Shown one piece after another: positions 21,303-39,298 of a stretch of DNA of 63,701 nt. The position numbers and the translations under genes were made by a program. The stretch covers positions 1 through 63,701 of the forward strand of contig JAZKRZ010000001.1 in the NCBI GenBank assembly GCA_036626395.1, written 5' to 3'. How positions within the stretch are numbered: position 1 is the stretch's first letter; each line of letters starts with the position of its first letter. The notes beneath the pieces were generated by a model. It ran no database searches. It was not told the origin of the DNA and worked only from the letters and a program-made list of their open reading frames with translations. Origin of the DNA: Haloarculaceae archaeon. GTDB taxonomy: Archaea > Halobacteriota > Halobacteria > Halobacteriales > Haloarculaceae.

Positions 21303-21848
21303 ATGAGCACCCAGAAGACGGTCCGACAGGAGGCGGGGACAGTCGAGGAGAACGAACTTCGACTCGACCGCGGGAAGGCGGAACAGATAGTCGACGCGCT
21401 GAACACCGACCTGGCCGCGACGTACGTGCTGTACCACCAGCTGAAGAAACACCACTGGAACGTCGAGGGTGCGGAGTTCCGCGACCTTCACCTCTTCCTG
21501 GGCGAAGCGGCAGGCAACGCAGAGGAGGCGGCCGACGAACTCGCCGAGCGACTCCAGGCTATCGGTGGCGCACCCGTCGCCGGGCCCCGGGCTATCGCCG
21601 AGACGTCGCCGGTCGAGTCCGAGGACGAGGACGTCTACGACATCCGGACGTCACTGGAGAACGACCTCGACGTCTACGGCGACATCATCGAATCGCTGCG
21701 CGAACACGTCGAACTCGCGGCGGACCTGGGCGACCACGCGACCGCCGAGATCCTCCGGGGGATCCTCGTCCAGACGGAAGAAGACGCCCACCACATCGAC
21801 CACTACCTCGAAGACGACACGCTCGTGACGGAAGCCGCACAGGAGTAG
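21303..21848 (+). CDS. dpsA: DNA-protecting protein DpsA (ferritin-like)
   Basis: Very close to Halobacterium DpsA as I recall it (YVLYHQLKKHHWNVEGAEFRDLHLFLGEAA, HHIDHYLEDDTLVT). An AT-rich promoter lies upstream. Confidence 0.9.
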   Translation: MSTQKTVRQEAGTVEENELRLDRGKAEQIVDALNTDLAATYVLYHQLKKHHWNVEGAEFRDLHLFLGEAAGNAEEAADELAERLQAIGGAPVAGPRAIAETSPVESEDEDVYDIRTSLENDLDVYGDIIESLREHVELAADLGDHATAEILRGILVQTEEDAHHIDHYLEDDTLVTEAAQE

Positions 21849-22046: not shown

Positions 22047-22062
22047 TTTAGGCGGACCTAAT
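22047..22062. promoter_or_regulatory. Palindromic motif site s1, TTTAGG-CGGA-CCTAAT
   Basis: 15/16 match to TTTAGG-N4-CCTAAA. Lies in the 78-bp divergent gap between the small ORF (22039) and the oxidoreductase (22118). Confidence 0.55.
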
Positions 22063-22117: not shown

Positions 22118-23215
22118 ATGGACCCGCTCACCGTCGGACTCGTCGGCTGTGGCAACATCAGCGAGCGCTACCTCACGCACGACGCACACCTCGACGCGTT
22201 CGAGATCGAGGTCTGTGCCGACCTGGATGCCGAACGCGCCGAACGGACCGCCGACGAGTTCGACGTCGAGGCCCGGGGCGTCGAGGAACTGATGGACAGC
22301 GACGACGTCGAGGCGGTACTCAACCTCACGCCACCGTTCGCTCACGCCGAGGTCTGCCTTCAGGCGCTCGAGGCCGGCAAACACGTCTACACTGAAAAAC
22401 CCCTGGCGACGGAGAGAGGGGACGCGGCCGAGATAGTCGAGACGGCCGCGGAGAGAGGCCTGTTCGTCGGCGCGGCCCCCGACACGTTCCTCGGGGCCGG
22501 CCTGCAGACCGCGCGTTCGGTCATCGACGAGGGGGGGATCGGCGAACCCCTCGGCGCGACGGCCGTCTGGAGTTCCCCGGGCCACGAGCACTGGCACCCG
22601 GACCCCGACCTGTTCTACGCGGAAGGCGGCGGTCCCGGCCTCGACATGGGACCGTACTACGTAACCGCGCTCGTTGCCCTCCTCGGTCCCGCCGAGCGCG
22701 TCGCCGGAACGGTCGGCCAGCCCCACGACGAACGCGAGATCACCAGCGGCTACCGCGAGGGCGAGTCAGTCGGCGTCGAGGTGCCCACGCACGAGTCGGC
22801 GACCCTCGACTTCGGCGACGGGGTTACCGCCAACCTCCTCTTCAGTTTCGACGTCGCGGCCTCGACGTTCCCGATGCCGGCCTTCGAGATATACGGCACC
22901 GAGGGGACGCTCGCGCTTCCCGACCCCAACCACTTCGAGGGGCCCGTCCGGGTTCGCGGGCGGACGGACGACGAGTGGGAGGAGGTACCGCTGACCCACG
23001 ACTACACGACCGGCCGCGGTGGGGGGCTCGTCGACCTCGCCTACGCCGTCCGTTCGGACTGGGAACAGCGCGCGAGCGGGCGCCTCGGGCGACACGTCCT
23101 CGACATCCTGCTGGGGATCCGCTCGTCGGCCGAGGCAGGCGTCTACGACGACCTGGAGACCGAACTGGAGCGACCGGCCGCTCTCCCCCCTGCGTTTCCT
23201 GACCGGTCGGCGTAA
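22118..23215 (+). CDS. Gfo/Idh/MocA-family NAD(P)-dependent oxidoreductase
   Basis: N-terminal VGLVGCGNIS Rossmann motif and the EKP motif (YTEKPLA). Confidence 0.85.
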   Translation: MDPLTVGLVGCGNISERYLTHDAHLDAFEIEVCADLDAERAERTADEFDVEARGVEELMDSDDVEAVLNLTPPFAHAEVCLQALEAGKHVYTEKPLATERGDAAEIVETAAERGLFVGAAPDTFLGAGLQTARSVIDEGGIGEPLGATAVWSSPGHEHWHPDPDLFYAEGGGPGLDMGPYYVTALVALLGPAERVAGTVGQPHDEREITSGYREGESVGVEVPTHESATLDFGDGVTANLLFSFDVAASTFPMPAFEIYGTEGTLALPDPNHFEGPVRVRGRTDDEWEEVPLTHDYTTGRGGGLVDLAYAVRSDWEQRASGRLGRHVLDILLGIRSSAEAGVYDDLETELERPAALPPAFPDRSA

Positions 23216-24852: not shown

Positions 24853-25233
24853 TCAGACCGGGTCGAACCGGTAGCCGTCCCAGTCGGTGCTCTCGGGGGT
24901 TTTCAGTCCAACGTCCGGGTCGCGCAGTTCCTCGACGTAGACCGGTTCGACGCCGTCGCCGGTCTCGACTCCGTCGGTCGTGACCTGTCCGATGGCCCGG
25001 ACGTGTTCGTCCCCCTCGACGGCGTCACTGACGTCGAACTCGACGATCGCGAGCGTGTTCGGTTCGCGAACACCCGGCGGCGTCGCCGTGCTCGTCGTCC
25101 AGGTGACGACCTCGCCGGTCCGCTCGCTCAGGTCCACCGTCGCCGACTGTTCCTCGCCACACTCCGGACACAGCGCGTGTCCGGGGTAACTCGCGTGCCC
25201 GTTCGGACAGACGTGGGCGTCGAAAGACGTCAT
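24853..25233 (-). CDS. Zn-ribbon/OB-fold protein (DUF35), thiolase partner
   Basis: C-x4-H...C-x2-C zinc ribbon (CPNGHASYPGHALCPEC) followed by an OB fold. 4-nt overlap with the thiolase gene. Confidence 0.8.
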   Translation of the reverse strand: MTSFDAHVCPNGHASYPGHALCPECGEEQSATVDLSERTGEVVTWTTSTATPPGVREPNTLAIVEFDVSDAVEGDEHVRAIGQVTTDGVETGDGVEPVYVEELRDPDVGLKTPESTDWDGYRFDPV

Positions 25234-26378
25234 CGTGCCTCCATGACGGTGGTGATGACGCAATTGCCGAACCCGCCGACGTTACACGCCAGGGCCGTGT
25301 CGGCCTCGACCTGTCGCGGGCCGGCCTCGCCGACGAGCTGTTTGTATATCTCGTACCCCTGCGCGACGCCACTCGCACCGAGCGGGTGCCCCTTCGATTT
25401 CAGCCCGCCCGAGGTGTTGACCGGCAGTTCGCCGTCCTTCTCGGTGCGGCCGTCCTCGACCTGTTTCCACGCTTCGCCCTGCTCGGCGAAGCCACAGCCC
25501 TCCATCTGCAGGAACTCGAGGATGGTGAACATGTCGTGGAGTTCGGCCACGTCGACGTCCCCGGGGCCGATACCGGCCATCTCGTAGGCCCCGCGGCTCG
25601 ACTCGACGACGCCCCCCATGACGGTGGGGTCGTCGCGCTCGTGGACGACGTGGGTGTCCGTCGCCCCGTCGATGCCCGTGATGACCGCGTAGTCGTCCGT
25701 GATCTCCCGGGCGCGCTCCTCCGTCGTGAACACCAGTCCCGCGCTCCCGTCCGTGATGGGACAGAAGTCATAGAGCCGCAGCGGATCGGCGACCATCGGG
25801 CTCTCCAGGGCAGTGTCGACGTCGATCTCCTTCCGGAACTGCGCGTGGGGGTTGTCGACGCCGTTACGGTGGTTCTTGACGGCGACTTTCGCGAGTGAAT
25901 CGCGGGGCGCGTCGAAGCGTTCGAGGTAGTGACGTGCGGTCAGTCCCGCGAAGGAGGGGAGCGTGAGGCCGTGTTTGTACTCGACGGGGTGGGTGATCGA
26001 GGCGATGACGTCCGTCGCCTCGGCGGTCGTCTTGTGCGTCATCTTCTCGCCGCCGACGAGCAGCGTCAGGTCGCTGGCACCCGAGGCGACCGACTGCCAG
26101 GCCTCGTAGATGCCCGCGCCGCCCGACGAGGAGGTCTGGTCGACCCGCTCGCTGTAGGCCGGGATGACGCCCAGGTCGTGGGCGAGCGCGTTCATCACCC
26201 CGGTCTGGCCCTGGAACTCGCCGCTGGCCATGTTCGAGACGTAGAGGTGCTCGACGTCGTCGGGTTCGATGCCCGCGTCGTCGAGCGCCGCCACGCCCGC
26301 CTCGGCCAGGAGCTCCTGTATCCAGGCGTCGCGGCGCCCGAACTGCGTCATCGAGGCACCGATCACTGCGACTGTCAT
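25230..26378 (-). CDS. Thiolase (archaeal acetyl-CoA acetyltransferase type)
   Basis: MTVAVIGASMTQFG start; thiolase motifs (CPITDGSAG, NTSGGLKSKGHPLGASG). Trimmed from the 432-aa track ORF. Confidence 0.85.
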   Translation of the reverse strand: MTVAVIGASMTQFGRRDAWIQELLAEAGVAALDDAGIEPDDVEHLYVSNMASGEFQGQTGVMNALAHDLGVIPAYSERVDQTSSSGGAGIYEAWQSVASGASDLTLLVGGEKMTHKTTAEATDVIASITHPVEYKHGLTLPSFAGLTARHYLERFDAPRDSLAKVAVKNHRNGVDNPHAQFRKEIDVDTALESPMVADPLRLYDFCPITDGSAGLVFTTEERAREITDDYAVITGIDGATDTHVVHERDDPTVMGGVVESSRGAYEMAGIGPGDVDVAELHDMFTILEFLQMEGCGFAEQGEAWKQVEDGRTEKDGELPVNTSGGLKSKGHPLGASGVAQGYEIYKQLVGEAGPRQVEADTALACNVGGFGNCVITTVMEAR

Positions 26379-26482
26379 GCCCGGAGCCTCGGAGGGCTCT
26401 GTTGTGGGTGTTACGGTCCCGCGAGTCCCGCTCCGAGCACACCTGCCGTCGTCGCGATGAACGTGCGTCGGTCCATACCTGG

Positions 26483-26498
26483 TTTTGGCTGGCCTAAA
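26483..26498. promoter_or_regulatory. Palindromic motif site s2, TTTTGG-CTGG-CCTAAA
   Basis: 15/16 match, 105 nt upstream of the thiolase ATG. Confidence 0.45.
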
Positions 26499-26517
26499 AG
26501 ATTCAAACCGTCCTATC

Positions 26518-26533
26518 TTCAGGTACACCTAAA
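26518..26533. promoter_or_regulatory. Palindromic motif site s3, TTCAGG-TACA-CCTAAA
   Basis: 15/16 match, centred 35 bp from s2. Confidence 0.45.
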
Positions 26534-26591: not shown

Positions 26592-26942
26592 TCAGTAGAA
26601 CGACCGGGCGGCGGCCTTCCACTCCTCGCCGCGCTCGACGTCGTCGGGCCAGTGGCGCTTGCCGACCGATTTCATGCGGGCCGCCAGCGTCCACTCGTCG
26701 GCGCGGTCGGGCTTTCGCTGCCGTTCGCTCGCGGCCGCCGCGGCCGCCCGGACCCTGTCTGTCAGGTGGGCCCCGACCGCCGTGGCGATGGCCGCGGCCT
26801 CCTCGCTGTCGGCGTCGGCCGGCAGCGTCGTCGAGACCGTCTGACCGTCGACGGTCACGACCACTGTTTCGCCGTCCGGCGCATCTGCTCGTCGACCCCC
26901 GCCTTCGTTCGCCGTCTCCTCGCTCAGTTCGATGTCCATCAC
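26592..26942 (-). CDS. pccX: Small acc-operon protein (PccX-like subunit of propionyl-CoA carboxylase)
   Basis: Small protein immediately downstream of, and overlapping, the carboxyltransferase gene. This arrangement is described for Haloferax pccB-pccX. Confidence 0.6.
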
Positions 26943-28540
26943 AGGGGGATGTTGCCGTGGTCTTTCGGCGGGCTGTCCTCGCGTTTCCCCGCCAGCATCT
27001 CGAGGTCCCGGACCAGGCGCTTGCGGGTGTCCTTCGGTTCGATGACGTCGTCGAGATACCCGCGCCTCGCCGGGCCGTAGGGGTGGGCGAACTCCTCACG
27101 GAACTCGTCCATGAGTTCCTGTCGGCGGGCGTCGGTGTCCTCGGCCTGCTGGAGTTCCTTCCGGTAGAGGATGTTCACGGCCCCCCGCGGACCCAGCACC
27201 GCCATCTCCGAGCCCGGCCAGGCGTAGTTGACGTCCGAACCGAGGAACTTCGAGGACATGACGATGTACGCGCCGCCGTAGGCCTTGCGGACGACGACCG
27301 AGAGGAGGGGCACCGTCGCCTCGGCGTAGGCGTAGATGAGCTTCGCGCCGCGACGGATGATCCCGTTGTGTTCCTGCTCGGTGCCGGGCATAAACCCCGG
27401 GACGTCGACGAGCGTGAGGATCGGGACGTTGAATGAGTCACAGAAGCGAACGAACCGCGCGGCCTTCTCGGAGGCGTCGATGTCCAGCGTGCCCGCGCTC
27501 ACGCGGGGCTGGTTGGCGACGATGCCGACGACGCGCCCGTCCATGCGGGCGAAGCCGACGACGACGTTGCGCGCCCAGTTGCCGTGGGTCTCGAAAAACG
27601 AGTCCTCGTCGACCAGCCGGTCGATGACAGCCGTCATGTCGTAGGGCTTTCGCGGCGCTTCCGGGACGATCTCCGTTACGTCGGTCAACTCCCTGTCGGG
27701 GTCGTCCCACGAGGGTACCCGCGGCGGGTCCGCGAGATTGTTCGCGGGGAGATACGAGAGCAGTCGCCGGATGCGGTCGAGGGCCGCTTCCTCGCTCCGG
27801 CAGGCGAAGTGGGCGACGCCCGATTTCGAGGAGTGGGAACCGGCACCGCCGAGTTGCTCCTTGGAGACCTGCTCGCCGGTGACCGTCTCGATGACGTCCG
27901 GGCCGGTGATGAACATGTGCGACGTGTCCTCGACCATGAACGTGAAGTCGGTCAGTGCCGGCGAGTACGTCGCACCGCCGGCACACGGCCCCATGATCGC
28001 CGAGACCTGGGGGACGAGTCCGGAGGCCTTCGTGTTGCGCTCGAAGATCCGCGCGAACCCGGCGAGCGAGTCGACGCCCTCCTGGATGCGCGCGCCGCCC
28101 GAGTCGTTGATGCCGACGACGGGGACGCCGTTGTCGATGGCGCGGTCCATGACCTTGCAGACCTTGTCGGCGACGGCCTCCCCCACTGAACCGCCGAGCA
28201 CGGTGAAATCGTGAGCGAAGACGAATATCTTGCGGCCGTCGACCTCCCCGTAGCCGGTGACGACGGCGTCGCCGGGGAACTCCTTGTCGGCCATCCCGAA
28301 GTTCGTCGAGCGGTGCTCGACGAACGGGTCGACCTCCACGAAGGTGTCCTCGTCCAGCAGGTACTCGATGCGCTCGTGGGCGGTCATCTTCCCCTGGTCG
28401 TGCTGGCGCTCGATGCGGTCCTCGCCGCCGCCGCGACGGGACGCCCGGCGGCGCCGCCGGAGTTCCCCCAGCGGTGATTCCCCGTCCCGCCCGCTGGACC
28501 GACCCGCCGGATCGGCGTCTTCGGTACCCTCCTGGCTCAT
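26939..28540 (-). CDS. pccB: Acyl-CoA (propionyl-CoA) carboxylase carboxyltransferase subunit
   Basis: Typical carboxyltransferase sequence ([32 protein letters not shown]). ATG at 28538-40 chosen, 1 nt after the fabG stop. Confidence 0.85.
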
Positions 28541-28541
28541 C

Positions 28542-29309
28542 CTACCACTCCATGCCGCCGTTGACACCGAGCACCTGGCCGGTCATGTACGCCGACTCCT
28601 CGCTGGCGACGAACGAGACGATCCCGCAGATGTCCTGGACCGTCGCGAACCTGTCCAGGGGGATGTCCCGCAGTATCTTCTCCTGGACGCGCTGGGGCAC
28701 CTCCTCCAGCATGTCGGTCTGGACGAACCCCGGCGCGATGCAGTTGGCCGTCGACCCCGTCGAGGCCATCTCCAGGGCGAGCGTCCGGGTGAACCCGAAC
28801 AGGCCGGATTTCGTCGTCGCGTAGTTGGCCTGGCCGTAGTTGCCCTGCTGGCCGACGACCGACGAGATGTTTATCAGGCGCCCGTGTTCGCTCTCGCTGA
28901 TGTCGTCGAAGAACGCTTTCGTGCAGTTGAACACGCCCCCCAGGTTGACCTCCATGACGCGGTTCCAGTCCTCGCGGGTCATGTTCTCGAACTTCTTGTC
29001 GACCGTGATGCCCGCGTTGTTGACGAGGACGTCGATCGACCCGACGTCGTCGTGGACTTTCTCGCGCATGGCCTCGACCTGGGCGAGGTCCGAGACGTCC
29101 GCCTGTGCCACCATCGCCGTTCCGCCGTCCTCGCGGATCCCCTCGACGACGGCCTCGGCCTCGGCGGCCGAGGACCGGTAGTTGACCACGACCGTCGCGC
29201 CCCGTTCGGCGAGGTCCCTCGCGATCCCGCGACCGATCCCGCGGGAACTCCCGGTCACCAGGCAGGTCCGCCCGTCCAGTCTCACGGGCGCGTCACCTCC
29301 AGTACGCAT
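28542..29309 (-). CDS. fabG: 3-oxoacyl-ACP / acetoacetyl-CoA reductase (SDR; FabG/PhaB-like)
   Basis: TGSSRGIG, NNAG and YATTK motifs. Trimmed to the ATG at 29307-09. Confidence 0.85.
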   Translation of the reverse strand: MRTGGDAPVRLDGRTCLVTGSSRGIGRGIARDLAERGATVVVNYRSSAAEAEAVVEGIREDGGTAMVAQADVSDLAQVEAMREKVHDDVGSIDVLVNNAGITVDKKFENMTREDWNRVMEVNLGGVFNCTKAFFDDISESEHGRLINISSVVGQQGNYGQANYATTKSGLFGFTRTLALEMASTGSTANCIAPGFVQTDMLEEVPQRVQEKILRDIPLDRFATVQDICGIVSFVASEESAYMTGQVLGVNGGMEW

Positions 29310-29486
29310 CGATCGTTCATCGTGTACCCCTATTCGCCAGTGGAAGCGGGTTAAGCGTTCCCCTTGGACAGGTGTCAGGTACCCCGTCACTGACCCTCAT
29401 TGTTCCTACGTGGGCAACCACCCGGCGCGTGCTTGCCGGACCACACCGCCCGTCGTCGCCGTCGCATCGAACCGTCGTTCCCCTTC

Positions 29487-29502
29487 TTTAGGGGAGCCTA
29501 AA
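29487..29502. promoter_or_regulatory. Palindromic motif site s4, TTTAGG-GGAG-CCTAAA (perfect)
   Basis: Perfect 6+6 inverted repeat with a 4-nt spacer, in the divergent gap between fabG and the GT75-like gene. Confidence 0.6.
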
Positions 29503-29512
29503 CGGAAGCTTC

Positions 29513-29528
29513 TTTAGGGATACCTAAA
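29513..29528. promoter_or_regulatory. Palindromic motif site s5, TTTAGG-GATA-CCTAAA (perfect), overlapping the probable TATA box of the GT75-like gene
   Basis: Perfect palindrome centred 26 bp from s4. The CCTAAAAA half ends 22 nt before ATG 29550, the position of a TATA box for a leaderless transcript. Confidence 0.6.
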
Positions 29529-29549: not shown

Positions 29550-30710
29550 ATGACACGCGACATCTGCGTGGTCGTGCCGACCATACGCGAGTACGAGTGC
29601 GTGCGAGCCTACGCCGAGAACGCCCGCGAACACGGGTTCGACCTCGACAGGACGGAGTTCGTCCTCGTCACCGAAGACTTCTGTGAGACGGCAGCGATGG
29701 AGGAGATGCTCGACGAGGAGGACCTCTCTGGCGAAGTCTTCGACGGCACGGCTCGCGAGCGGTGGTACCGCGAGCAGGGCATCGCGGAGCACGAACACGT
29801 CGTGCCCGCCGCGAGTCACGCCGAGACGAGTTTCGGCCTGCTGTACCTGTGGGCCGACGACTTCGAGTACGGCGTGTTCGTCGACGACGACACGCTTCCC
29901 CACCCCGACTACGACTTCTTCGGGCGCCACCTGCGCAATCTGGCCTACGAGGGCGAGGTCACGAGCGTCCGTTCGGACGAGCAGTGGGTGAACGTCCTCT
30001 ACCAGAACGCCGACGACCACGGCCTCTACCCGCGGGGGTACCCCTACAGCGCGATGGACGAAACCGTCGAGACCGGCGCCGAGTACGTCGACGACGTCGT
30101 CGCTTCCCAGGGGCTGTGGACCAACGTCCCGGACCTGGACGCGGTCCGCATCCTGATGGACGGGGACCTGCGCGGCCAGGCCGAGACGCGCCTCGACGCC
30201 GACGACTACGACGGGGACTTCGTCGCCGCGGAAGGCCAGTATCTCACCGTCTGCTCGATGAACCTCGCCTTCCGGCGGGAGGTCGTGCCCGCGTTCTACC
30301 AGCTACCCATGGACGACAACCCCTGGGACGTGGGTCGCTTTGACGACATCTGGAGCGGCGTCTTCCTCAAGCGGGCCTGCGACCTGCTCGGCAAGCAGAT
30401 CCACAGCGGCGCGCCGCTCTGTGAGCACAACAAGGCGCCCCGCTCGACCTTCGGCGACCTCGTCAACGAGGTGCCCGCGCTGGAACTCAACGAGCACGTC
30501 TGGGAGATAACCGACGACGCCGGAAGCGGGGCCGACTCCTTTGGGGTCGCCTTCGAGGCGATGGCCGACGCCCTCGTCGACGCCGATGTCGACTACGAGA
30601 ACGCCGATTTCCTCGCGTACGTCGGCGAACACATGCACGACTGGTTGACCGCCCTGGAGACGCTCGAACCGGGGACCACGACCGTCGAGGCGGCGACGGC
30701 GGACGACTGA
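29550..30710 (+). CDS. GT75-like protein (reversibly glycosylated polypeptide / UDP-arabinopyranose mutase family homologue)
   Basis: N-terminal DICVVVPTIRE matches the RGP signature (IVIPTIRN). Also has a DDD motif (VFVDDDT) and RGP-like length. Confidence 0.6.
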   Translation: MTRDICVVVPTIREYECVRAYAENAREHGFDLDRTEFVLVTEDFCETAAMEEMLDEEDLSGEVFDGTARERWYREQGIAEHEHVVPAASHAETSFGLLYLWADDFEYGVFVDDDTLPHPDYDFFGRHLRNLAYEGEVTSVRSDEQWVNVLYQNADDHGLYPRGYPYSAMDETVETGAEYVDDVVASQGLWTNVPDLDAVRILMDGDLRGQAETRLDADDYDGDFVAAEGQYLTVCSMNLAFRREVVPAFYQLPMDDNPWDVGRFDDIWSGVFLKRACDLLGKQIHSGAPLCEHNKAPRSTFGDLVNEVPALELNEHVWEITDDAGSGADSFGVAFEAMADALVDADVDYENADFLAYVGEHMHDWLTALETLEPGTTTVEAATADD

Positions 30711-30747
30711 ACCGACAGAGATAACCGACGCAGGACGACCACACACA

Positions 30748-31977
30748 ATGACGGACGACGACTCAATGACCGACCGTATCGACGACAGAACGCGACGCCG
30801 GGTCCTCGCTGCAGGGTTCGCTGGCGCCACGGGCCTTCTCGCCGGCTGCCAGGGCGGCGGCGACTCGACGCCGACTGACAGCGGCGATTCGACCCCGCCG
30901 GACGACGGCGGCGACGGCAGTGACGGCTCTGACGGCGGCGACGTCGCACCGGTCTCGGGAGACCCGCCCTGGTACGGGTCCGGCCCCGGCGCGTTCGAGG
31001 CACGGCCGGTCCCCGGCGGCACCTCCATGGAGGAGATGCCCGACCTGTCGGGCTCGTTACGGGTCTTCTCCGGGCGTGGCGAGGGACTGGTCGGTGACCT
31101 CGTCTCCTATCTCGACGAGCGCTACGACGGTTTCGACCCTCGGGTCACGTACGACACGGCGTCGGCGCTGGCCCAGCGAATCGACACCGAGGGCGGGAAC
31201 ACGCCCGCCGACGTGTTCTACTCGGTCAACGCCGGCGCCCTGGGCTTTCTCGCCGAGAACGACCGGACCGAGGGTCTGCCGGACGCGACAACGTCACTGG
31301 TCGGCGAGGAGTTCCGCGATGCCGACGGCCAGTGGGTCGGCACCTCCGGGCGCGCCAGAACGGTCCCGTACAACACCGAGACCGTCTCGGAATCCGCGGT
31401 CCCCGACGACATCATGGCCTTCCCCGACCTCACCGAGTTCGAGGGGGAGATCGGCTGGGCACCCACCTACTCTTCGTTCCAGGGCTTCGTCACGGCGATG
31501 ATCGAACTCGAGGGCGAGGGGGCCACCCGGGAGTGGCTCAACGGAATGCAGGAGTTGAACGTCCAGGGGTACTCCGACGAGTTCGCCATCGCCCAGGCGG
31601 TCGCTGACGGCGACCTCGCACTCGGGTTCACGAACCACTACTACATCCAGCGCGTCCTCGCCGGTCGGCCCGAGGCGCCCCTCGCGACGGCGTTCACCGA
31701 GGGCGACGCCGGCAGCGTCTTCAACGTGGCCGGCGCCGCCCGGGTCGCCGCCAGCGACCGCCGCGAACAGGCCGACCTGTTCGTACGTCATCTCCTCGCT
31801 TCGGAGGCCCAGGAGTACTTCGCGGTCCGGACCTTCGAGTACCCCCTGGTCTCGGGCGTCGAACCCGTGGGTCGGCTCCCGAGCATCGAGGAACTGAACG
31901 TCCCCGACATCGACCTGTCGGCGCTGTCGAATCTGGACAGCACGGTTCGGCTGCTCCGCGACGAGAACGTCCTCTGA
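30748..31977 (+). CDS. ABC transporter substrate-binding lipoprotein, Fe(III)/FbpA-like, Tat-exported
   Basis: Twin-arginine motif TRRRVL followed by the lipobox LLAGC. Family-1 SBP sequence resembling iron(III)-binding proteins. Confidence 0.75.
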   Translation: MTDDDSMTDRIDDRTRRRVLAAGFAGATGLLAGCQGGGDSTPTDSGDSTPPDDGGDGSDGSDGGDVAPVSGDPPWYGSGPGAFEARPVPGGTSMEEMPDLSGSLRVFSGRGEGLVGDLVSYLDERYDGFDPRVTYDTASALAQRIDTEGGNTPADVFYSVNAGALGFLAENDRTEGLPDATTSLVGEEFRDADGQWVGTSGRARTVPYNTETVSESAVPDDIMAFPDLTEFEGEIGWAPTYSSFQGFVTAMIELEGEGATREWLNGMQELNVQGYSDEFAIAQAVADGDLALGFTNHYYIQRVLAGRPEAPLATAFTEGDAGSVFNVAGAARVAASDRREQADLFVRHLLASEAQEYFAVRTFEYPLVSGVEPVGRLPSIEELNVPDIDLSALSNLDSTVRLLRDENVL

Positions 31978-33599
31978 TGGCCGACACCGAGACCACGCCC
32001 GCGTCCGGACTGCGCGCCGCCAGGGAGGCACTCGCCTCCCGCGTGCTCGTCGTCCTCGCCGGGCTGGTCTCGGTCGTCGTCCTGCTCCCGCTGTCCTGGA
32101 TGGTCATCGCCGGCGGTCGGGTGCTACAGACCGGTGAAGTCGCCGCCATCCTCCTCCGTTCCCAGACGCTCGGTATCGTCGCCAACAGCCTCCTGCTGAC
32201 GGTCGTCGTGACCGGCGGGTCGATCCTGATCGGCGTCCCGCTGGCGTACCTCACGACCCGATGTAACCTCCCGTTCCGCCGGTCTGTCACCGTCGCCCTG
32301 GCGATGCCGCTGGTCATCCCCAGTTACATCGGCGCGTTCGCGTTCGCCTCGGCCTTCGCCCCCCGCGGCGAGGTCCAGTCGTTGCTCGAACCGTACGGCG
32401 TCGAGTCCATCCCCGGCATCTACGGGCTCCCCGGCGCGGCACTGGTCATCACTCTCTACACCTATCCCTACGTGTTCATCACCACCCGGGCCGCGCTCAA
32501 GTCGCTGGACACCAGGCTCGTCGACGCCGCGCGCACGCTCAGACACACGCCCTGGCAGGCGTTTCGCCGGGTGACACTGCCCCAGATACGCCCCGCCGTC
32601 TCGGCGGGGTCGTTGCTCGTCGCGCTGTACGCCATCTCCGATTTCGGGACGCCGGCCATCCTCCGGTACGACGTGTTCACCCGCGCCATCTACGTCGAGT
32701 TCAACGCCTTCGGCCGGGACACCGCGGCGATGCTCTCGGTCGTGCTCGTGCTCGTCACGTTCGGAATTTTGGCCCTGGAACGCCGCTACAGCGGCGGCGA
32801 CCACGTCGAGACGACCCGCGGACACGCCAGCGCGGCGCGCATCGACCTCGGTCGCTGGCGGTGGCCCGCTCTCGTCCCGTGTCTGGTCGTCGCGAGCCTC
32901 GCGCTCGTGGTGCCACTGGCCATCCTGGGACTCTGGCTCGTCCGCCCGAGCGGCGGGATGGCCATCGCCTTCGGCTTCGAACACGTCGCCAACTCCGTGG
33001 GCGTCGCCGCGGGAGCGGCCCTGGTCGCGGCCGTCGTCGGTCTCCCCATCGCCCACCTCTCGGCCCGCGGCGACTCCCGACTGGCGACGCTGTTCGAACG
33101 GGCCTCCTACGTCGGCTACGCCGTCCCCGGCATCATCGTCGGCATCGCGCTGGTCTTCCTGGGCGCGCGCTTCGGCGGTGACCTCTACCAGACCGGCGCG
33201 CTCGCGTTCCCGCTGCTCCTCTACGCCTACGTCGTCCGCTTTCTCCCCCAGGCCGTCGGCTCCACGCGCGCCTCGATCCTCCGTGTCAGCCCCGCGCTCC
33301 CGGAGGCCGCCCGGTCGCTCGGCCGGTCGCCCCTGGGCGCCTTTCGCTCGGTCACCCTGCCCCTCATAGCGCCGGGGCAGGTCGGCGGTGGCGCACTCGT
33401 CTTCCTCACGACGATGAAAGAACTCCCCGCGACGCTCATGCTCCGGCCCGCGGGGTTCGAGACGCTGGTCACGTTCGTCTGGCGGGCCGAGCGCTCGGCG
33501 GCCTACGGCTCCGCCGCGCTCCCCGCGCTGGTGCTCGTGCTCGTCTCCGCGTGCTCGATGCTCGTCATCCTGAGCATGGAAGGGTACAGCGTCGAGTGA
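31977..33599 (+). CDS. ABC transporter permease (duplicated FbpB-like, about 12 TM)
   Basis: 540 aa with two EAA-type permease repeats. Its start overlaps the SBP stop. Confidence 0.85.
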   Translation: MADTETTPASGLRAAREALASRVLVVLAGLVSVVVLLPLSWMVIAGGRVLQTGEVAAILLRSQTLGIVANSLLLTVVVTGGSILIGVPLAYLTTRCNLPFRRSVTVALAMPLVIPSYIGAFAFASAFAPRGEVQSLLEPYGVESIPGIYGLPGAALVITLYTYPYVFITTRAALKSLDTRLVDAARTLRHTPWQAFRRVTLPQIRPAVSAGSLLVALYAISDFGTPAILRYDVFTRAIYVEFNAFGRDTAAMLSVVLVLVTFGILALERRYSGGDHVETTRGHASAARIDLGRWRWPALVPCLVVASLALVVPLAILGLWLVRPSGGMAIAFGFEHVANSVGVAAGAALVAAVVGLPIAHLSARGDSRLATLFERASYVGYAVPGIIVGIALVFLGARFGGDLYQTGALAFPLLLYAYVVRFLPQAVGSTRASILRVSPALPEAARSLGRSPLGAFRSVTLPLIAPGQVGGGALVFLTTMKELPATLMLRPAGFETLVTFVWRAERSAAYGSAALPALVLVLVSACSMLVILSMEGYSVE

Positions 33600-33643
33600 G
33601 CCCACCTCGGCCCGTTTTCGGCTCTCGGGACGAACCCGATGGC

Positions 33644-33659
33644 TTTAGGGCACCCTAAA
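33644..33659. promoter_or_regulatory. Palindromic motif site s6, TTTAGG-GCAC-CCTAAA (perfect)
   Basis: Perfect palindrome in the 125-bp gap between the permease stop and the ATPase start. Confidence 0.6.
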
Positions 33660-33724
33660 TCGTATCGACACACAGATGGACGTTTCCGGACGGTCTCTGT
33701 GGCGGCGGGCACCGGGGTGGTCCC

Positions 33725-34930
33725 GTGTCCGATAGCCACGCCGGTTCGAAAGAGCGGGCGCGGGCGGGCCGGCCCGACGAGGACCCGGTCCTCGAACTCG
33801 ACGGCGTGACCAAGCGGTTCGGCGACGAACCCGTCGTCGAGGACATGGACCTGGCAGTCCGGGACGGGGAACTGCTCACTCTGTTGGGTCCGTCGGGGTG
33901 TGGCAAGACCACCACCCTCAGGCTCATCGCCGGTCTGGAGGAACCCGACGCCGGGGAGATCCGCCTCCGTGGCGAGCGCGTCGCCGGCGGCGACAGTTTC
34001 GTCGCGCCCGAGACTCGCGACGTCGGCATCGTCTTCCAGGAGTTCGCCCTGTTCCCGCACAAGACGGCCGCCGAGAACGTGGCCTTCGGTCTCCACGACC
34101 GCACCGAGACCGAACGCCGCGAGCGGGTCGACGAACTGCTGGACCTGGTTGGGCTGACCGAACACCGCGACAGCTATCCGGACGAACTCTCCGGGGGCCA
34201 GCAACAGCGGGTCGCGCTCGCGCGGTCGCTCGCGCCCGAACCGCAACTGCTCCTGCTCGACGAACCGTTCTCGAATCTCGACGTCGACCTCCGGGTACAG
34301 ATGCGCGAGGAGGTCCGCTCGATACTGAAGGCGGCGGGCGTCACCGCCATCTCCGTGACCCACGACCAGGAGGAGGCCATGTCGATAAGCGACCGGGTGG
34401 CCGTCGTCAGCAACGGCGCTATCGAACAGGTCGGCGACCCCGAGGAGGTGTTCCAGCACCCCGAGTCGCGCTTCGTCGCCTCGTTCCTCGGTCACGCGAG
34501 TTTCGTCTCCGGGGTCATCCGCGACGACTACGTCGACACCGGCCTCGGGAAGGTGCCCGTCGACCGCGTCCACGGCCTGACCGAGATTTACGACGGCGCG
34601 GAGGTCGACCTCCTCGTCCGTCCCGACGACGTCTCCGTCGAGAGCGTCCCGGACATCGAGGCCAACGGCGAAGTCGTCCACCGGCGGTTCCTGGGCCCGA
34701 GCGTCTTCTACCGGGTCGAACTCGACAGCGGCGATGTCGTCGGCTGTACCCACAACCACGAACACCGGGTCCCTCGCGACCGGCCGGTGCGCGTCGACCT
34801 CGACGCCGACCACGACCTCTCGTGGTTCCCCGACGACGTCGATACCGTGCCAGAGACCTTCGACAGTGGCCGCCACGCCGGAGAGACGCCCGACACCCGC
34901 GACCTGACCGTCGACCCCGTCGACGAGTAG
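33725..34930 (+). CDS. ABC transporter ATP-binding protein (FbpC/PotA-like with a C-terminal TOBE-type domain)
   Basis: Walker A GPSGCGKTT, signature LSGGQQQRV, Walker B LLLLDEP. GTG start. Confidence 0.85.
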   Translation: MSDSHAGSKERARAGRPDEDPVLELDGVTKRFGDEPVVEDMDLAVRDGELLTLLGPSGCGKTTTLRLIAGLEEPDAGEIRLRGERVAGGDSFVAPETRDVGIVFQEFALFPHKTAAENVAFGLHDRTETERRERVDELLDLVGLTEHRDSYPDELSGGQQQRVALARSLAPEPQLLLLDEPFSNLDVDLRVQMREEVRSILKAAGVTAISVTHDQEEAMSISDRVAVVSNGAIEQVGDPEEVFQHPESRFVASFLGHASFVSGVIRDDYVDTGLGKVPVDRVHGLTEIYDGAEVDLLVRPDDVSVESVPDIEANGEVVHRRFLGPSVFYRVELDSGDVVGCTHNHEHRVPRDRPVRVDLDADHDLSWFPDDVDTVPETFDSGRHAGETPDTRDLTVDPVDE

Positions 34931-34932
34931 CG

Positions 34933-37185
34933 ATGGGAGACGACCGCGGCGGAACCGTCGCCGGCCGCGTGACGACCGCGCTGGGCGGCCTCCGCCGGCG
35001 GGCCCGGCGTCGTCCCGCCACGGTCGCCATCGCCGTCCTCGCCGCGGCGGGCGCTGCGGTGGTCTTTTTCGTCGCTCACGACCTCTTTCCGTACCACTCG
35101 GTCAACCACGACGAGGGGGTCTACCTCCAGCAGGCCGCGATGTTCCTGGAGGGGAAACTCCTGCTCGAACCCCCCGTTCCCGAGGCGGTCCGTCCCTGGT
35201 TTTTCGTCGCCGACGACGGCCGACTCTACCCCAAGTACGGCCCCGGTACCGCGCTCGTGTTCGCGCCGGGCGTGGCGCTGGGCGTCCCCAGACTGGTCCT
35301 CGCCGCCGTCGCCGGAGTCTCGGCGGCCTGCGTCGGGCTCCTGGGACGGGCGGCCTTCGACGGTCGCGTCGGCGCCGTCGCGGCGGGCCTCCTCCTGACC
35401 GCACCGCTCTTCGTCGTCAATTCCGCCACCTTCCTCTCGTACGCTCCTACTACCGCTCTCAACCTCGTCTTCGCGCTGTCGTACGTCCGCGCGCTCCGCC
35501 GCCGGCGGCTCCGGTACGCTGCCCTCGCCGGCCTCGCGGTCGGGTTCGCCTTCCTGTCACGTCCCTACACCGCACTCCTGTTCGCGCTTCCGTTCGTCGT
35601 CCACGCGCTCGTCACGCTCGGGGGGGCGTGGTACCGTCACCGTCGCGTGACTGACGCGGAAAGCGACAGCGAGGGCCGTCACCCGCCGTGGGGCGTGACG
35701 CGACGGCTGGGCCTCGTCGCTGCGGTCGGCACCGCGTTCGTCGGCCTCACGCTCGGGTACAACTGGGTCCTGACCGGGGACCCGCTCGTCTTCCCCTACC
35801 AGGCGTTCGCCCCCGAGGACGGGGTCGGCTTCGGCCACCGTGAAATACTCGGCCACGAACGCGACTACACCGTCGAGGTCGCGCTCGACGCCAATCGCCG
35901 CGTTCTCCGGCAACTGGTCACGCGCTGGGGCCCGCTGGGCTGGCTCGGGTCCACGCTCGCGGCCGTCGGACTCGTCTCTTCCGTCGCCGGTCAGGTCGGG
36001 CGTCGACTCCTCGACCACCCGTCGGAACCCTCGAACGCGGGTGGCCGGCGCGCTGCCGGCGGGCCGCTGTCGGACCCCACCCTGCAGGCACTCCTCGCCG
36101 CGCTGTTCGTGACCGTCTCCCTCGGCAACCTGGCTTTCTGGGGCAACCTGAACGTCCTGGGTGCCGTCGAGGACCCGACGGACGGACTGGTCGCGTCCCT
36201 CGGCCCGTTCTACCACTTCGACCTCTTGCTCCCGCTCTCGGTGTTCGCCGGGGCGGGCGTCGTGACCGCCGGCGACCGTCTCCGTGCGCTCTCGCGGCGT
36301 CTGGACGGCCCCCTCGACCGGGCGGCAGTCAGAAACGGGGCGCTCGCTCTCGTCCTCGTAGCCGCACTCGCCGGCGGAGCGAGCGTGGGCGAGTCGGCGT
36401 TCGAAGACCCCGTGGACCGAAACGCGGAGTACCGGGATACCCTCGCGACAGTGTACGAGCCCTTCGAACGGACCGACCTCGAGAACGCGCTGGTGTTCGT
36501 CCCGACGCCGCTGGGGCCGTGGCTGAACCACCCGTTCCAGCGGCTCCGCAACGACCCCTCTTTCGACGGGGGGACGGTGTACGTCATGGACCGCGGTGCC
36601 GGGGGGGACGCCACCAGTCTCGCGGCGTTCCCCGACCGCACCCCCTACCGGTTCACGTACCGTGACGAGTGGTCGCCGTTCGAGACGGTGACACCGACCC
36701 TCGAGCGGCTCTCGGTACGCTCGGGGGACCGGCTCGACGTGTCGACGACCACCGGCGTGGTCGCCGGGGCCCAGACCGCTTCCGTCCGCGTCGCGGCCGG
36801 CGGCGAGACGCTCCACTACGGCGTCCAGCGCGTCGATGGACCCGCCGAGACGGTGAACTGGACCCTCTCTCCGGAGGGAGTCACGGTCGATTCGAGGGGG
36901 CTGCGGCGCTATAGCGGCGCGTCGTCGCTCGCACTGGACGGCCCGACGACGGTCACGCTCTCGGTCACGTACGTCCAGGCCGGGGGGGCGACGATCAGCT
37001 ACGTCCAGGAACTGACGGTACTCGGGACGGAGACGGGGGCGGGCGTGCGGGTCCTCTGGCCGCCGGAAGCGCGCGTCTGCCGACTCACGACCGACTGCGG
37101 GCGGGCTGGAACGTACCTCCCGGGGGGCGACTACGCGACCGGCGTCTCGCTGTCGACGAACCTGACCGGCACACAGGACGAGTGA
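34933..37185 (+). CDS. GT-C fold glycosyltransferase (PMT/ArnT, GT39/GT83-like), 750 aa
   Basis: The real frame begins at ATG 34933, 2 nt after the ATPase stop. The N-terminal half has about 10 or more TM helices, with a first-loop DE motif (NHDEGVY, codons at 35110-15). A large soluble C-terminal domain follows. No AglB WWDYG motif. Confidence 0.7.
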   Translation: MGDDRGGTVAGRVTTALGGLRRRARRRPATVAIAVLAAAGAAVVFFVAHDLFPYHSVNHDEGVYLQQAAMFLEGKLLLEPPVPEAVRPWFFVADDGRLYPKYGPGTALVFAPGVALGVPRLVLAAVAGVSAACVGLLGRAAFDGRVGAVAAGLLLTAPLFVVNSATFLSYAPTTALNLVFALSYVRALRRRRLRYAALAGLAVGFAFLSRPYTALLFALPFVVHALVTLGGAWYRHRRVTDAESDSEGRHPPWGVTRRLGLVAAVGTAFVGLTLGYNWVLTGDPLVFPYQAFAPEDGVGFGHREILGHERDYTVEVALDANRRVLRQLVTRWGPLGWLGSTLAAVGLVSSVAGQVGRRLLDHPSEPSNAGGRRAAGGPLSDPTLQALLAALFVTVSLGNLAFWGNLNVLGAVEDPTDGLVASLGPFYHFDLLLPLSVFAGAGVVTAGDRLRALSRRLDGPLDRAAVRNGALALVLVAALAGGASVGESAFEDPVDRNAEYRDTLATVYEPFERTDLENALVFVPTPLGPWLNHPFQRLRNDPSFDGGTVYVMDRGAGGDATSLAAFPDRTPYRFTYRDEWSPFETVTPTLERLSVRSGDRLDVSTTTGVVAGAQTASVRVAAGGETLHYGVQRVDGPAETVNWTLSPEGVTVDSRGLRRYSGASSLALDGPTTVTLSVTYVQAGGATISYVQELTVLGTETGAGVRVLWPPEARVCRLTTDCGRAGTYLPGGDYATGVSLSTNLTGTQDE

Positions 37186-37293
37186 TACTGTCGGACACAA
37201 GTACGTGAACACACTTGCTGGGAACACACTATCGAAACGCCCGTTCCGGGTCGAACGAGCCACCGACGGTGGCCTCACTTGTGTCCGACAGTA
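37186..37293 (+). mobile_element. MITE-like element, family A, copy A3 (108 bp)
   Basis: Flanked by direct TGA (37183-85 and 37294-96). The left TGA is the stop codon of the GT-C gene. Confidence 0.85.
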
Positions 37294-37406
37294 TGAGGAG
37301 GGGGCGGACAGCCGAGACGGCGTCAGCCTGCCTCCCCGGGAACCCCGTCGAGCCAGTCGGGCCGGACTATCGGCGCCGATACTGCGGAAAACCCGCGTCG
37401 CGGCGT

Positions 37407-38162
37407 TCAGCGGCGCCGCTCTTCGAAACCCACCCGCAGGATCGACTTCGCGATCGCGGCCCCGCCCACGAACGGGTCGAGTTTCGTCTCGCCCGTGCGC
37501 TCGTGATAGGGGATAGGGACCTCGCGAACGTCGTAGTCCCGCATGACCGGTCGCATGAGGAGTTCCGCCGAGAGGCCGGTGTTCTCGGTCCAGGCGATGG
37601 ACTCGACCACTTCGCGGCGGTAGGCTCGCATCCCGGTCGTCGTATCGCGGAGGCGCCGACCCACGAGCGCGCTCGCCAGCAGCGCGAAGGCGCGATTGCC
37701 TGCGCGGTTGAGCGCCGGCATCGAGTCCGCCCCCGGGGAGATCCGGTCGCCGCTGACGACGTCCGCGCCGTCGTTTATCGCCTTCAGGAAGCGGGGGAGT
37801 TCCTCCATCGGGTAGGTGTCGTCGCAGTCGGTGGTGACGACGACCGGTCTGTCGGCCGCCAGCAGCGCCGCCCGCACGGCCACGCCGTATCCCTGGGGGT
37901 CCTGTTCTATCACGCGCGCACCGTGGTCCCTCGCGACCTCCGGCGTCCGGTCGTCCGACCCGTCGACGCAGACGACCGACGCCCGCCCGTCGGTCACCGA
38001 ATCGATGTCCGACAGCACTGCCCCGACCGCAGCCTGTTCGTTGTACGTACCCATCACCACTGCGACGTCGTCGAACGTGAACTGACTCTCCCGCTCTCCG
38101 GTGTCGGGTCGCGCCCGTGGCTTTTCCCCGGGGTCGGCGCTCCGGCGCGTCGTGTCACTCAT
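37407..38162 (-). CDS. GT2 glycosyltransferase, dolichyl-phosphate hexose synthase-like (Dpm1/AglD/AglJ type)
   Basis: VVMGTYNE start of a GT-A fold, a DGSDD motif and a TDCDDTY (DxD) motif; 251 aa. Confidence 0.75.
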   Translation of the reverse strand: MSDTTRRSADPGEKPRARPDTGERESQFTFDDVAVVMGTYNEQAAVGAVLSDIDSVTDGRASVVCVDGSDDRTPEVARDHGARVIEQDPQGYGVAVRAALLAADRPVVVTTDCDDTYPMEELPRFLKAINDGADVVSGDRISPGADSMPALNRAGNRAFALLASALVGRRLRDTTTGMRAYRREVVESIAWTENTGLSAELLMRPVMRDYDVREVPIPYHERTGETKLDPFVGGAAIAKSILRVGFEERRR

Positions 38163-38195: not shown

Positions 38196-38211
38196 TTTAG
38201 GTTCGCCAAAA
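38196..38211. promoter_or_regulatory. Palindromic motif site s7, TTTAGG-TTCG-CCAAAA
   Basis: 15/16 match, 34 nt upstream of the GT2 ATG and 27 nt downstream of the regulator gene stop. Confidence 0.5.
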
Positions 38212-38237: not shown

Positions 38238-39080
38238 TCAGGGCTCGAACGATTCGAGGAACCGGTCGACGGGGGTCGCACGCTCCCAGTAGTACTCGTA
38301 GAGGTCCCGGCCCCAGGCGAGGGCGCGCTCGTCCGTGGCCAACACTTCGGTCCGCGAGTCGTACTGGCCGTCGATAGTGGGCAACGAGAACAGCAGGTGG
38401 TCCTCGGTGACGCCGACGCCGACGTCGACGTCAAGCAACCTGACCGTCGTCTCCTCGAAGACGCGCGCCTCTTCGAGCGAGCCGACTCGCTCCAGGGACT
38501 CCCTGAGAACGGTGGTGTCGATGACCAGGCGAGCCCCCTCGGTATCGGGCATGACGGTCTCGTACTCGGCCTGGTAGATCGGCGTCACGACGTCGACGCG
38601 CTCTTCGGCGGCCTCGATGCGGCGAGAGACCTCGCGAACCCCGGCGTGTGGGTCCGTGTCCGGAGCCCTGAACACCTCCGCCCCCGCGAGTTCCGTCAGT
38701 CGGAGTCTGAACCGTCGGGGCAGCGCTCCCACGTCGTGGGTCTCCCAGTAGTCGTCTTCGAGCAGGCGCGAGAGGTTCTCCTGCTGTTCGAGCAGGTCCG
38801 CCACCAGCTGTCCGCTCCCCGTGACCTCGTGACGAGCGTCGACCGTCCGGACGAGTCCACGCCGTTCCAGGTCACCTACCGCGTTGTAGATGGCGGACTC
38901 GCTCGCGTCTATCGTCTCGATGAGCCGTTCGGTCGCGCTCGCTTTCGACGCCACGCTGACCAGAACGTCGGTCCGCACCGACGAGCTGAGCACGCCCCGA
39001 AAGACGGAACTACCCGTCACGGAACCATCCCCTGTCGCGTCCCCCGGGCTCGAGTTCGACCCATCATTATCGGATTCCAT
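38238..39080 (-). CDS. Winged-helix transcriptional regulator with a DUF1724/FilR1-like C-terminal domain
   Basis: ArsR-like wHTH (ERLIETIDASESAIYNAVGDLERRGLV) plus a long C-terminal domain. ATG at 39078-80 preferred over the GTG at 39095. Confidence 0.7.
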   Translation of the reverse strand: MESDNDGSNSSPGDATGDGSVTGSSVFRGVLSSSVRTDVLVSVASKASATERLIETIDASESAIYNAVGDLERRGLVRTVDARHEVTGSGQLVADLLEQQENLSRLLEDDYWETHDVGALPRRFRLRLTELAGAEVFRAPDTDPHAGVREVSRRIEAAEERVDVVTPIYQAEYETVMPDTEGARLVIDTTVLRESLERVGSLEEARVFEETTVRLLDVDVGVGVTEDHLLFSLPTIDGQYDSRTEVLATDERALAWGRDLYEYYWERATPVDRFLESFEP

Positions 39081-39298
39081 ATGTAATGGATACACTTCGC
39101 TCTTCCGGAACGTTTCGGCGACCGTGGAATTACTGTGAGACTGAAAGTTCAGGTTTTATTTCGGTGAAGCACCGAGCATCCGGTGCGGTCCGAAACGGGA
39201 TGCCGAGGTTCCCCGCTGGCGACGTCGACCGGGCGACACGCGTCCCACCGGCGACACCAGCGACGACAGGTCCGACGGAGCGGGGCGAGTGGGCCCCG

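Follow-up and report, generated by a model that had tools for sequence, protein, structure and literature searches.

In a 63,701-nucleotide stretch from the genome of a Haloarculaceae archaeon (contig JAZKRZ010000001.1 of GenBank assembly GCA_036626395.1, positions 1 to 63,701; hereafter the window), genes of three sugar-handling families lie in one block with the genes of an ATP-binding cassette (ABC) importer, and a palindrome that resembles an operator of iron-dependent repression recurs at the promoters of the block. The window has about 69% G+C and haloarchaeal character, and gene frames were picked by third-position G+C. On the forward strand, the block begins with a gene for a GT75 protein (RGP/UAM/MtdL family; 29550-30710, 386 aa) and continues with genes for a substrate-binding protein (SBP; 30748-31977), a fused double permease (31977-33599, 540 aa), an ABC ATPase (33725-34930, 401 aa), and a GT-C membrane glycosyltransferase (34933-37185, 750 aa). 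The ATG of the GT-C gene lies 2 nt past the stop codon of the ATPase gene, and a gene for a GT2 enzyme (37407-38162, 251 aa) runs convergently on the reverse strand. An initial annotation, made without database searches, had described four components here, namely the GT75 homologue, an Fe(III)-type importer, the GT-C enzyme, and a GT2 of the dolichyl-phosphate-hexose-synthase type. Gene calls and profile searches located all four as described, and every family that had been named was recovered with Pfam or NCBIfam profiles, RGP and PMT_2 among them.

The Fe(III) assignment of the importer is borne out by its SBP, which, judging from its closest relatives, is a genuine ferric-binding protein of an FbpABC-type importer. 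Besides the SBP_bac_6 profile, the SBP matched 28 solved iron-binding proteins in all, including 7w3w (E = 1.4e−54), Thermus FbpA (4elo, E = 2.5e−47), and FbpA/HitA of Neisseria and Haemophilus (E of about 1e−30). The stretch N296-H297-Y298-Y299, with its twin tyrosines, and Y241 are invariant among 31 orthologues. The predicted lipoprotein carries a Tat signal (RRRVL), a lipobox cysteine (Cys34), and an acidic linker rich in Ser, Thr, and Gly. The permease, of the FbpB/SfuB type, has two BPD_transp_1 stretches; its NCBIfam matches are to fused PhnU2/ThiP-type permeases, and it is syntenic in most related loci. The FbpC-type ATPase has an ABC_tran (123 bits) and a TOBE_2 (38.6 bits) domain and scores 289 bits on the ferric ABC ATPase model NF008513, which is under that model's cut-off. 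Weak NCBIfam hits raised thiamine or phosphonate as the substrate of the importer, but the ferric-binding matches of the SBP and the iron boxes described below counter both. With the FbpABC, HitABC, and SfuABC importers of Neisseria, Haemophilus, Serratia, and Thermus, the system shares a related SBP (E from 1e−54 to 1e−30), the twin tyrosines, a fused permease of 2 × 6 transmembrane segments, and a TOBE-bearing ATPase. It differs from them in that the SBP is a Tat lipoprotein on a single-membrane cell and in that the operon carries a GT-C gene, whose product has an extracellular domain predicted to dock on the SBP.

The palindrome TTTAGG-N4-CCTAAA had been noticed by the initial annotation at the promoters of the GT75 gene, the ATPase/GT-C pair, and the GT2 gene. 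It is exact at the first two, with two boxes in the divergent promoter region before the GT75 gene (29487-29502 and 29513-29528, region 29487..29528) and one in the 125-nt gap between the permease and ATPase genes (33644-33659), whereas the copy in the GT2 promoter (TTTAGGTTCGCCAAAA, 38196-38211, 34 to 49 nt upstream of the ATG) has one mismatch (CCAAAA). Other one-mismatch copies begin at 22047, 26483, and 26518. The 7 sites with at most one mismatch in the window compare with 0.00 expected and with none in 100 dinucleotide-preserving shuffles, and the draft genome (3.09 Mb, 84% complete) has 9 such sites, 7 of which are those in the window. What had been missed is the probable identity of the motif. 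From ChIP-seq, motif discovery, and promoter-reporter mutagenesis, PMC10783522 gives TTTAGGC-NNN-CCTAAAANAN as the operator of TroR, which is the chief iron regulator of the DtxR family in Haloferax volcanii. By its agreement with this motif, the palindrome is a putative TroR-type iron operator, and DtxR-family regulators are encoded in the genome. The TroR regulon of H. volcanii, as far as the accessible text of PMC10783522 describes it, has in common with the block not only the operator sequence but also tandem boxes about 26 to 30 bp apart and iron uptake targets; the members given there are siderophore synthesis, Fe-hydroxamate transporters, dpsA, and idr, and glycosyltransferase genes are not discussed in that portion of the text.

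The box at 29513-29528 ends 22 nt before the GT75 ATG and overlaps a TATA-like sequence (CCTAAAAAC), and the arrangement before the GT2 gene is alike. Because haloarchaeal transcripts are mostly leaderless, the position of the boxes suggests that these promoters would be repressed when iron-loaded TroR is bound and, consequently, induced at low iron.

A pattern scan with the GT-C protein gathered 68 related loci that span many genera, including Halobacterium, Haloarcula, Natronomonas, Halolamina, Halobaculum, Halovivax, Halobiforma, and Haloquadratum. Most of these loci retain the order GT75, SBP, permease, ATPase, GT-C, and convergent GT2, and the others show no more than local rearrangement. 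In all of them, the gene upstream of the GT-C gene is an importer gene of the same orientation; in 12 loci, this is the SBP gene, and the permease gene lies a few kilobases off. The boxes recur too: one lies 19 to 62 nt upstream of the GT75 start in 51 of 56 loci, before the GT2 gene in 50 of 59 (often as a CCAAAA or CCGAAA variant), and before the SBP gene in 35 of 60, and in none of the related loci scanned does one lie directly before the GT-C gene. Because 0 of 42 other loci have a box before the ATPase gene, the box in the permease-ATPase gap is particular to the source lineage, and it would serve the ATPase and GT-C genes as an internal promoter/operator specific to that lineage. The winged-helix regulator (HVO_A0261_N and FilR1_middle) encoded on the reverse strand at 38238-39095, whose gene ends just upstream of the GT2 promoter, was considered as the protein that binds the boxes and was rejected, as it is a neighbor in 3 of the 68 loci, all from Haloarculaceae, whereas the boxes are class-wide. 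Because both the gene block and the boxes recur across Halobacteria in these 68 loci, the importer is an integral part of the module and not a bystander. That it is co-inherited and syntenic had been overlooked in the initial annotation.

In a sample of 201 Halobacteria genomes, PF25230 (DUF7846, the extracellular domain of the GT-C enzyme) and PF03214 (RGP) each match 155 genomes, and neither matches the other 46. Their tallies are identical per family and per listed genus, both lack a match in the same 20 listed genomes, and the two matches lie a few kilobases apart. A co-occurrence test of the glycosyltransferase genes, as had been proposed earlier, was therefore passed: the GT75 and GT-C domains share a phyletic pattern, and the GT2 follows it in the 10 genomes checked. 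These distributions also bear on the possibility that the genes are neighbors without a shared function and that the palindromes are ordinary promoter elements. Boxes do precede unrelated-looking thiolase/DUF35, SDR-PccB, and Gfo/Idh/MocA genes, and the motif overlaps a TATA-like sequence. However, a motif with 9 sites in the whole genome is no general promoter feature, it is identical to a tested operator, and, with the identical phyletic pattern of GT75 and DUF7846 and the synteny across families, we regard such an accidental neighborhood as close to excluded.

The GT75 protein scores 56.6 bits on the Pfam RGP profile (gathering cut-off of 23.8, residues 106 to 321 covered), and the two motifs that had been noted in it are VVVPTIRE at residues 7-14 and DDD at residues 112-114. 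Its closest solved relative is MtdL (7xpr/7yua, E = 5e−24), while the plant UAM 8cid is a weaker match (E = 2.9e−5). MtdL is an Mn2+-dependent GDP-L-galactose/fucose pyranose-to-furanose mutase, in which R159 is the nucleophilic, autoglycosylated arginine (R158 in OsUAM1), D260 is the base, and H287 is an Mn2+ ligand (PMC9937993). Residues DDD112-114, R162 (within PRGYPY), D195, S236, and H293 of the GT75 protein align with D109-111, R159, D195, S228, and H287 of MtdL, and the Arg and the second Asp of its RFDD motif align with R257 and D260. All residues that PMC9937993 rates as essential are kept in this alignment. Because the MtdL-type catalytic residues are intact, we read the putatively cytoplasmic GT75 protein as a pyranose-to-furanose mutase, and it is most likely an active nucleoside diphosphate (NDP)-sugar ring mutase. 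Its base-selectivity positions are mixed, with P10 as in UDP-using RGPs and S89 as in GDP-using MtdL. At the position of MtdL Q229 it has Met, as do plant RGPs. Across genera, GT75 identity is 70 to 88%, whereas that of the far less constrained GT-C enzyme is only 40 to 50%. In common with the bacterial GT75 mutases MtdL and Hyg20, which act on the pyranose forms of GDP-L-galactose and GDP-L-fucose (PDB 7XPR and 7YUA), and with plant RGP/UAM proteins, it has the DXD motif, the nucleophilic Arg, the Asp base, the Mn2+-binding His, and the phosphate-binding Arg. It departs from them in the mixed base-selectivity positions and in its context, which is antibiotic or cell-wall synthesis in their case and a predicted iron regulon here. 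In one sampled haloarchaeal genome, a second RGP-family gene was seen (G013:C1:1525556-1526527); because it scores 452 bits on Pfam RGP, as against about 55 to 70 bits for the GT75 proteins of the module, it appears to be a near-canonical plant-type RGP in a haloarchaeon.

The GT2 protein matches Glycos_transf_2 (Pfam) and, at 393.1 bits against a cut-off of 375 and over profile positions 1 to 213 of 213, the NCBIfam equivalog NF041391 (dolichyl-phosphate hexose transferase). The AglJ model gives it 135 bits, where the cut-off is 325. Among solved enzymes, the dolichyl-phosphate-mannose synthase of Pyrococcus comes closest (5mlz, E = 1.3e−13), and ArnC is also one of the solved relatives. The dolichyl-phosphate-hexose-synthase type proposed for this protein thus holds at the equivalog level, and, by this match, it is a putative dolichyl-phosphate hexose transferase of the HVO_1613 type. 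HVO_1613 is reportedly outside N-glycosylation (PMC9943897), and conditional up-regulation in a stress proteome (PMC12949519) belongs to the literature support for the interpretation favored below. We found NF041391 above its cut-off, at a distance of 1 to 3 kb from DUF7846, in all 5 module genomes checked, which come from five families, and in none of 5 genomes without the module, where only paralogues of 100 to 112 bits were present. Because this equivalog was found only in module genomes (5/5 versus 0/5), the HVO_1613-type transferase is apparently the module's own donor synthase. Such strict co-location and co-occurrence back the logic, already drawn in the initial annotation, by which the GT2 would load dolichyl phosphate and the GT-C enzyme would use it.

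The GT-C enzyme matches PMT_2 at 36.9 bits (cut-off of 26.1, residues 120 to 228) and DUF7846 at 158.6 bits. Its GT-C core spans residues 1 to about 515, and the DUF7846 profile match covers extracellular residues 519 to 693, within a beta-sandwich domain that extends past residue 693 toward the C-terminus and has conserved cysteines C716 and C722. Residues D60-E61 (in NHDEGVY) belong to the first extracellular loop, immediately behind transmembrane segment 1, and are invariant in 30 homologues. The best 36 Foldseek matches of an AF2 model built on 30 homologues (pLDDT 84, pTM 0.86) are all GT-C enzymes. Aligned with VIA-align, the model gives Z scores of 20 to 23.5 against STT3/AglB, Pmt1-Pmt2, Pmt4, ALG12, and ArnT, and of 18 to 23.5 across 370 to 460 residues over a wider set that also includes ALG9, PglB, and DPY19. 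No WWD or WxD motif occurs anywhere in the 750-aa protein, which is therefore not AglB. Pfam searches at E up to 0.01 found PMT_2 and DUF7846 only and no MIR domain, and therefore the protein is not a PMT in the strict sense. The earlier description of a PMT/ArnT-like GT-C enzyme with a first-loop Asp-Glu motif and, for want of WWDYG, not AglB, agrees with these results.

The initial annotation had gone on to propose this enzyme as a candidate for archaeal O-glycosylation, such as that of S-layer glycoproteins, or for another surface-glycan modification. Taken as a general O-glycosylation or other housekeeping surface-glycan pathway, this view would leave the importer as an unrelated neighbor. 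The GT-C fold is indeed similar to that of protein O-mannosyltransferases (Pmt1-Pmt2, Z = 22.7, root mean square deviation [rmsd] 4.6, 392 aligned residues), and a dedicated dolichyl-phosphate-hexose synthase adjoins. The premise that the enzymes of archaeal O-glycosylation have yet to be found also holds, as the pathway is still termed elusive in PMC8241124. The only progress on it that we found concerns Haloarcula: PMC11182771 cites Agl22 and Agl23 of Haloarcula hispanica as a dolichyl-phosphate-hexose synthase and a flippase and, following Lu 2020, links dolichyl-phosphate glucose/galactose to extracellular N- and O-glycans. Yet an iron-repressor operator stands at all promoters of the module, the importer is co-inherited and syntenic, the PMT-type MIR domain is missing, and whole genera are among the 46 of 201 genomes in which the module was not found. 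Because of the iron-regulon location, this patchy distribution, and the predicted docking on a ferric-binding protein, a housekeeping S-layer role is unsupported, and we give a general pathway only a slim chance of being the right explanation; the part of the proposal that survives is O-glycosyltransferase activity as such, which the GT-C enzyme may have in the specific service of iron uptake. With AglD/AglS of H. volcanii and with eukaryotic DPM1/PMT, the module shares a dolichyl-phosphate hexose donor, a PMT_2-type GT-C, and the first-loop Asp-Glu. It differs from these systems in that its GT2 falls in a separate equivalog family (393 bits on NF041391 and below the cut-off of the AglJ model), in having no MIR domain, in the predicted control by iron boxes, and in the link to an importer.

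Because rearrangements leave the SBP and GT-C genes side by side, we picked the DUF7846 domain and the mature SBP (residues 35 to 409) for a fold-based test of complex formation, in which our own alignments were supplied, so that the calibration is rough. The pair scored 0.76, and the best of three controls scored 0.01; in the calibration, 58 of 80 solved complexes and 2 of 110 mismatched pairs came up to this mark. At least 90% of contacts are common to the runs, and the partner has a pLDDT of 84. On the SBP side, the predicted interface takes in the helix of residues 273-289 together with the mouth of the iron cleft (G109-L114, Y241, N296, Y298, and R302). On the DUF7846 side, it comprises strands near residues 614-631 and 679-687 of the full-length protein and the C716-C722 loop. 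Recall of a solved complex is unlikely to lie behind this result, because DUF7846 lacks a recognizable relative among solved structures: a model of the isolated domain (pLDDT 87), compared with 48,161 solved chains, gave generic beta-sandwich matches only (best Z of 5.8) and no functional clue. The prediction supports, but does not show, that the extracellular DUF7846 domain of the GT-C enzyme binds the ferric-binding protein.

The predicted docking also helps to weigh an alternative in which the module remodels the envelope under iron stress in the manner of ArnC/ArnT. There, the sugar would go to a membrane lipid, a glycolipid, or a surface glycan instead of the ferric-binding protein, and the importer would merely be co-regulated. 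ArnT is among the closest folds of the GT-C enzyme (Z = 20.5, rmsd 4.6 over 403 residues), databases name its family "ArnT family glycosyltransferase," and a Tat-exported FAD sugar dehydrogenase pair encoded in the block in 41 of the 68 loci, often with its own box, would fit a surface sugar as substrate. Bacterial arn expression is likewise tied to iron, as it responds to high Fe3+ through PmrAB. The logic is also shared with the bacterial undecaprenyl-phosphate L-Ara4N transferase ArnC and the GT-C lipid A transferase ArnT, in that the product of a GT2, a polyprenyl-phosphate sugar formed in the cytoplasm, serves as donor for a GT-C enzyme that acts at the outer face. However, the control would be the opposite, apparently through a DtxR-type repressor box with induction at low iron, and the module differs in its dolichol carrier, its hexose, the lack of lipid A, the extra DUF7846 domain, and the joining of its genes to a ferric importer operon. 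The GT-C gene follows an importer gene directly even in rearranged blocks (the SBP gene itself in the 12 loci noted above), the DUF7846-SBP pair passed the docking test, and there is no known candidate lipid acceptor. Envelope remodeling keeps a small but appreciable chance of being correct.

We favor, with moderate confidence, the interpretation that the module is an iron-starvation-induced pathway of lipid-linked sugar, coupled to the FbpABC importer within the haloarchaeal TroR/FerR (DtxR-family) regulon and serving Fe(III) uptake. The TroR regulon is said to have been named the FerR regulon by Leyn and Rodionov in 2015. Under this interpretation, when iron is scarce, the repressor would leave the boxes over the GT75, importer, and GT2 promoters, as the box positions suggest, and the block would be switched on. 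The cytoplasmic GT75 protein, with its MtdL-type catalytic residues, would then turn an NDP-pyranose into an NDP-furanose, and the HVO_1613-type GT2 would, in line with its equivalog-level match, put a hexose on dolichyl phosphate. The lipid-linked sugar would be flipped and transferred by the GT-C enzyme at the outer face of the membrane, where the extracellular DUF7846 domain would dock on the FbpA-like lipoprotein. The acceptor would most likely be this lipoprotein itself, for example at its Ser/Thr-rich linker, or, failing that, a surface glycan or lipid next to it. In either case, the glycosylation would serve the capture or delivery of ferric iron.

Several observations weigh against this interpretation. 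The identity of the sugar and the feeding of the GT2 by the mutase product are inferred, and we know of no dolichyl-phosphate furanoses in archaea. The columns of the predicted interface do not stand out from the rest of either protein by higher conservation (0.52 versus 0.59 for DUF7846 and 0.70 versus 0.67 for the SBP) and therefore lend the docking no independent support. PMC10783522 reports 206 motif instances in the H. volcanii genome as against 36 detected ChIP-seq peaks, and thus the motif alone is no proof of binding. Finally, the orthologues are not among the 19 most iron-regulated H. volcanii proteins given in PMC11349517, a set in which membrane proteins may be under-sampled.

Each part of the module comes from a known family, and the logic of a donor synthase and a GT-C enzyme is classical. 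In the literature that we searched, we found no description of the union of GT75, GT2, and GT-C with a ferric importer under an iron repressor, nor of an SBP-docking GT-C domain, although mention in an earlier regulon table is possible, and no relevant literature on DUF7846, dolichyl-phosphate hexose transferase, or RGP in haloarchaea. The module suggests that iron starvation and cell-surface glycosylation are linked in a manner not described before, and it would give a physiological context to three families that have lacked one, namely DUF7846, the HVO_1613-type transferases, and the archaeal GT75 proteins. It bears on which GT-C enzymes use dolichyl-phosphate sugars outside archaeal cells and on which acceptors, as well as on the siderophore-free uptake of ferric iron by haloarchaea, which is poorly understood. 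With orthologues in H. volcanii and Halobacterium salinarum, the module is a genetically tractable target, and it supplies both a condition to look under (iron starvation or deletion of troR) and a candidate acceptor (the FbpA-like lipoprotein).

The remaining two sites of the genome lie outside the window. The eighth (C94:2235) directly precedes a gene pair (C94 50-2250) for a Tat-signal Gluconate_2-dh3 small subunit and a GMC FAD dehydrogenase, which resembles the FAD-glucose dehydrogenase of Burkholderia (E = 2e−87) and fructose dehydrogenase and has a 3Fe-4S-type motif, CVGYGTCKPVC. A gene for such a small subunit lies within the module block in 41 of the 68 loci, mostly with its GMC partner, and a box often lies about 18 nt before its start. 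In loci from Haloarcula and Halorientalis (L023 12013-12546, L025 11953-12504, and L034 11957-12520), a lone Gluconate_2-dh3-like gene with no adjoining GMC gene was seen between the GT-C and GT2 genes, and the one in L025 has its own iron box. The ninth site (C88:3436, region 3436-5504) stands before genes for a ZIP metal transporter and, next, an NDP-sugar epimerase/dehydratase. According to PMC11349517, iron starvation raises a GalE-family epimerase of H. volcanii, HVO_0655, 12.7-fold.

We conjecture, as an extension with a rather small chance of being correct, that ferric iron is captured with the help of a glycan. Under iron starvation, the SBP-docked GT-C enzyme would decorate the SBP or the adjacent surface with a dolichol-borne sugar, maybe a furanose, and the co-regulated, Tat-exported FAD/3Fe-4S sugar dehydrogenase (Gluconate_2-dh3 plus GMC) would oxidize this sugar, either to a keto-sugar/enediol ligand or with delivery of electrons to Fe(III), so that solubilized iron would reach FbpA or the co-regulated ZIP transporter. 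If true, this would be a siderophore-independent iron route built on the glycosylation of proteins or of the surface, and the GT-C enzyme would be the first archaeal one with a defined protein partner.

Boxes of the window (22047-22062, 26483-26533, and 29487-29528) also precede three sets of genes outside the block. These are a gene for a Gfo/Idh/MocA oxidoreductase (22118-23215), which itself comes just after a Dps/ferritin gene (21273-21848), a thiolase/DUF35 pair (24853-26528; the true start of the thiolase is probably near 26378), and a divergent SDR-PccB-PccX operon (26592-29390). In PMC11349517, iron starvation raises a DUF35 protein of H. volcanii, HVO_0834, 14-fold. The thiolase/DUF35, SDR-PccB, and Gfo/Idh/MocA genes were nonetheless rejected as core members of the module, as they are neighbors in a minority of loci only.

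The gap between the stop codons of the GT-C and GT2 genes is filled by a 108-bp palindromic element that resembles a miniature inverted-repeat transposable element (37186-37293). Copies that are 93 to 95% identical occur in the window at 184, 14053, 54096, and 57836, the last two as the reverse complement, and the terminal 20-mer of the element occurs 131 times in the draft genome.

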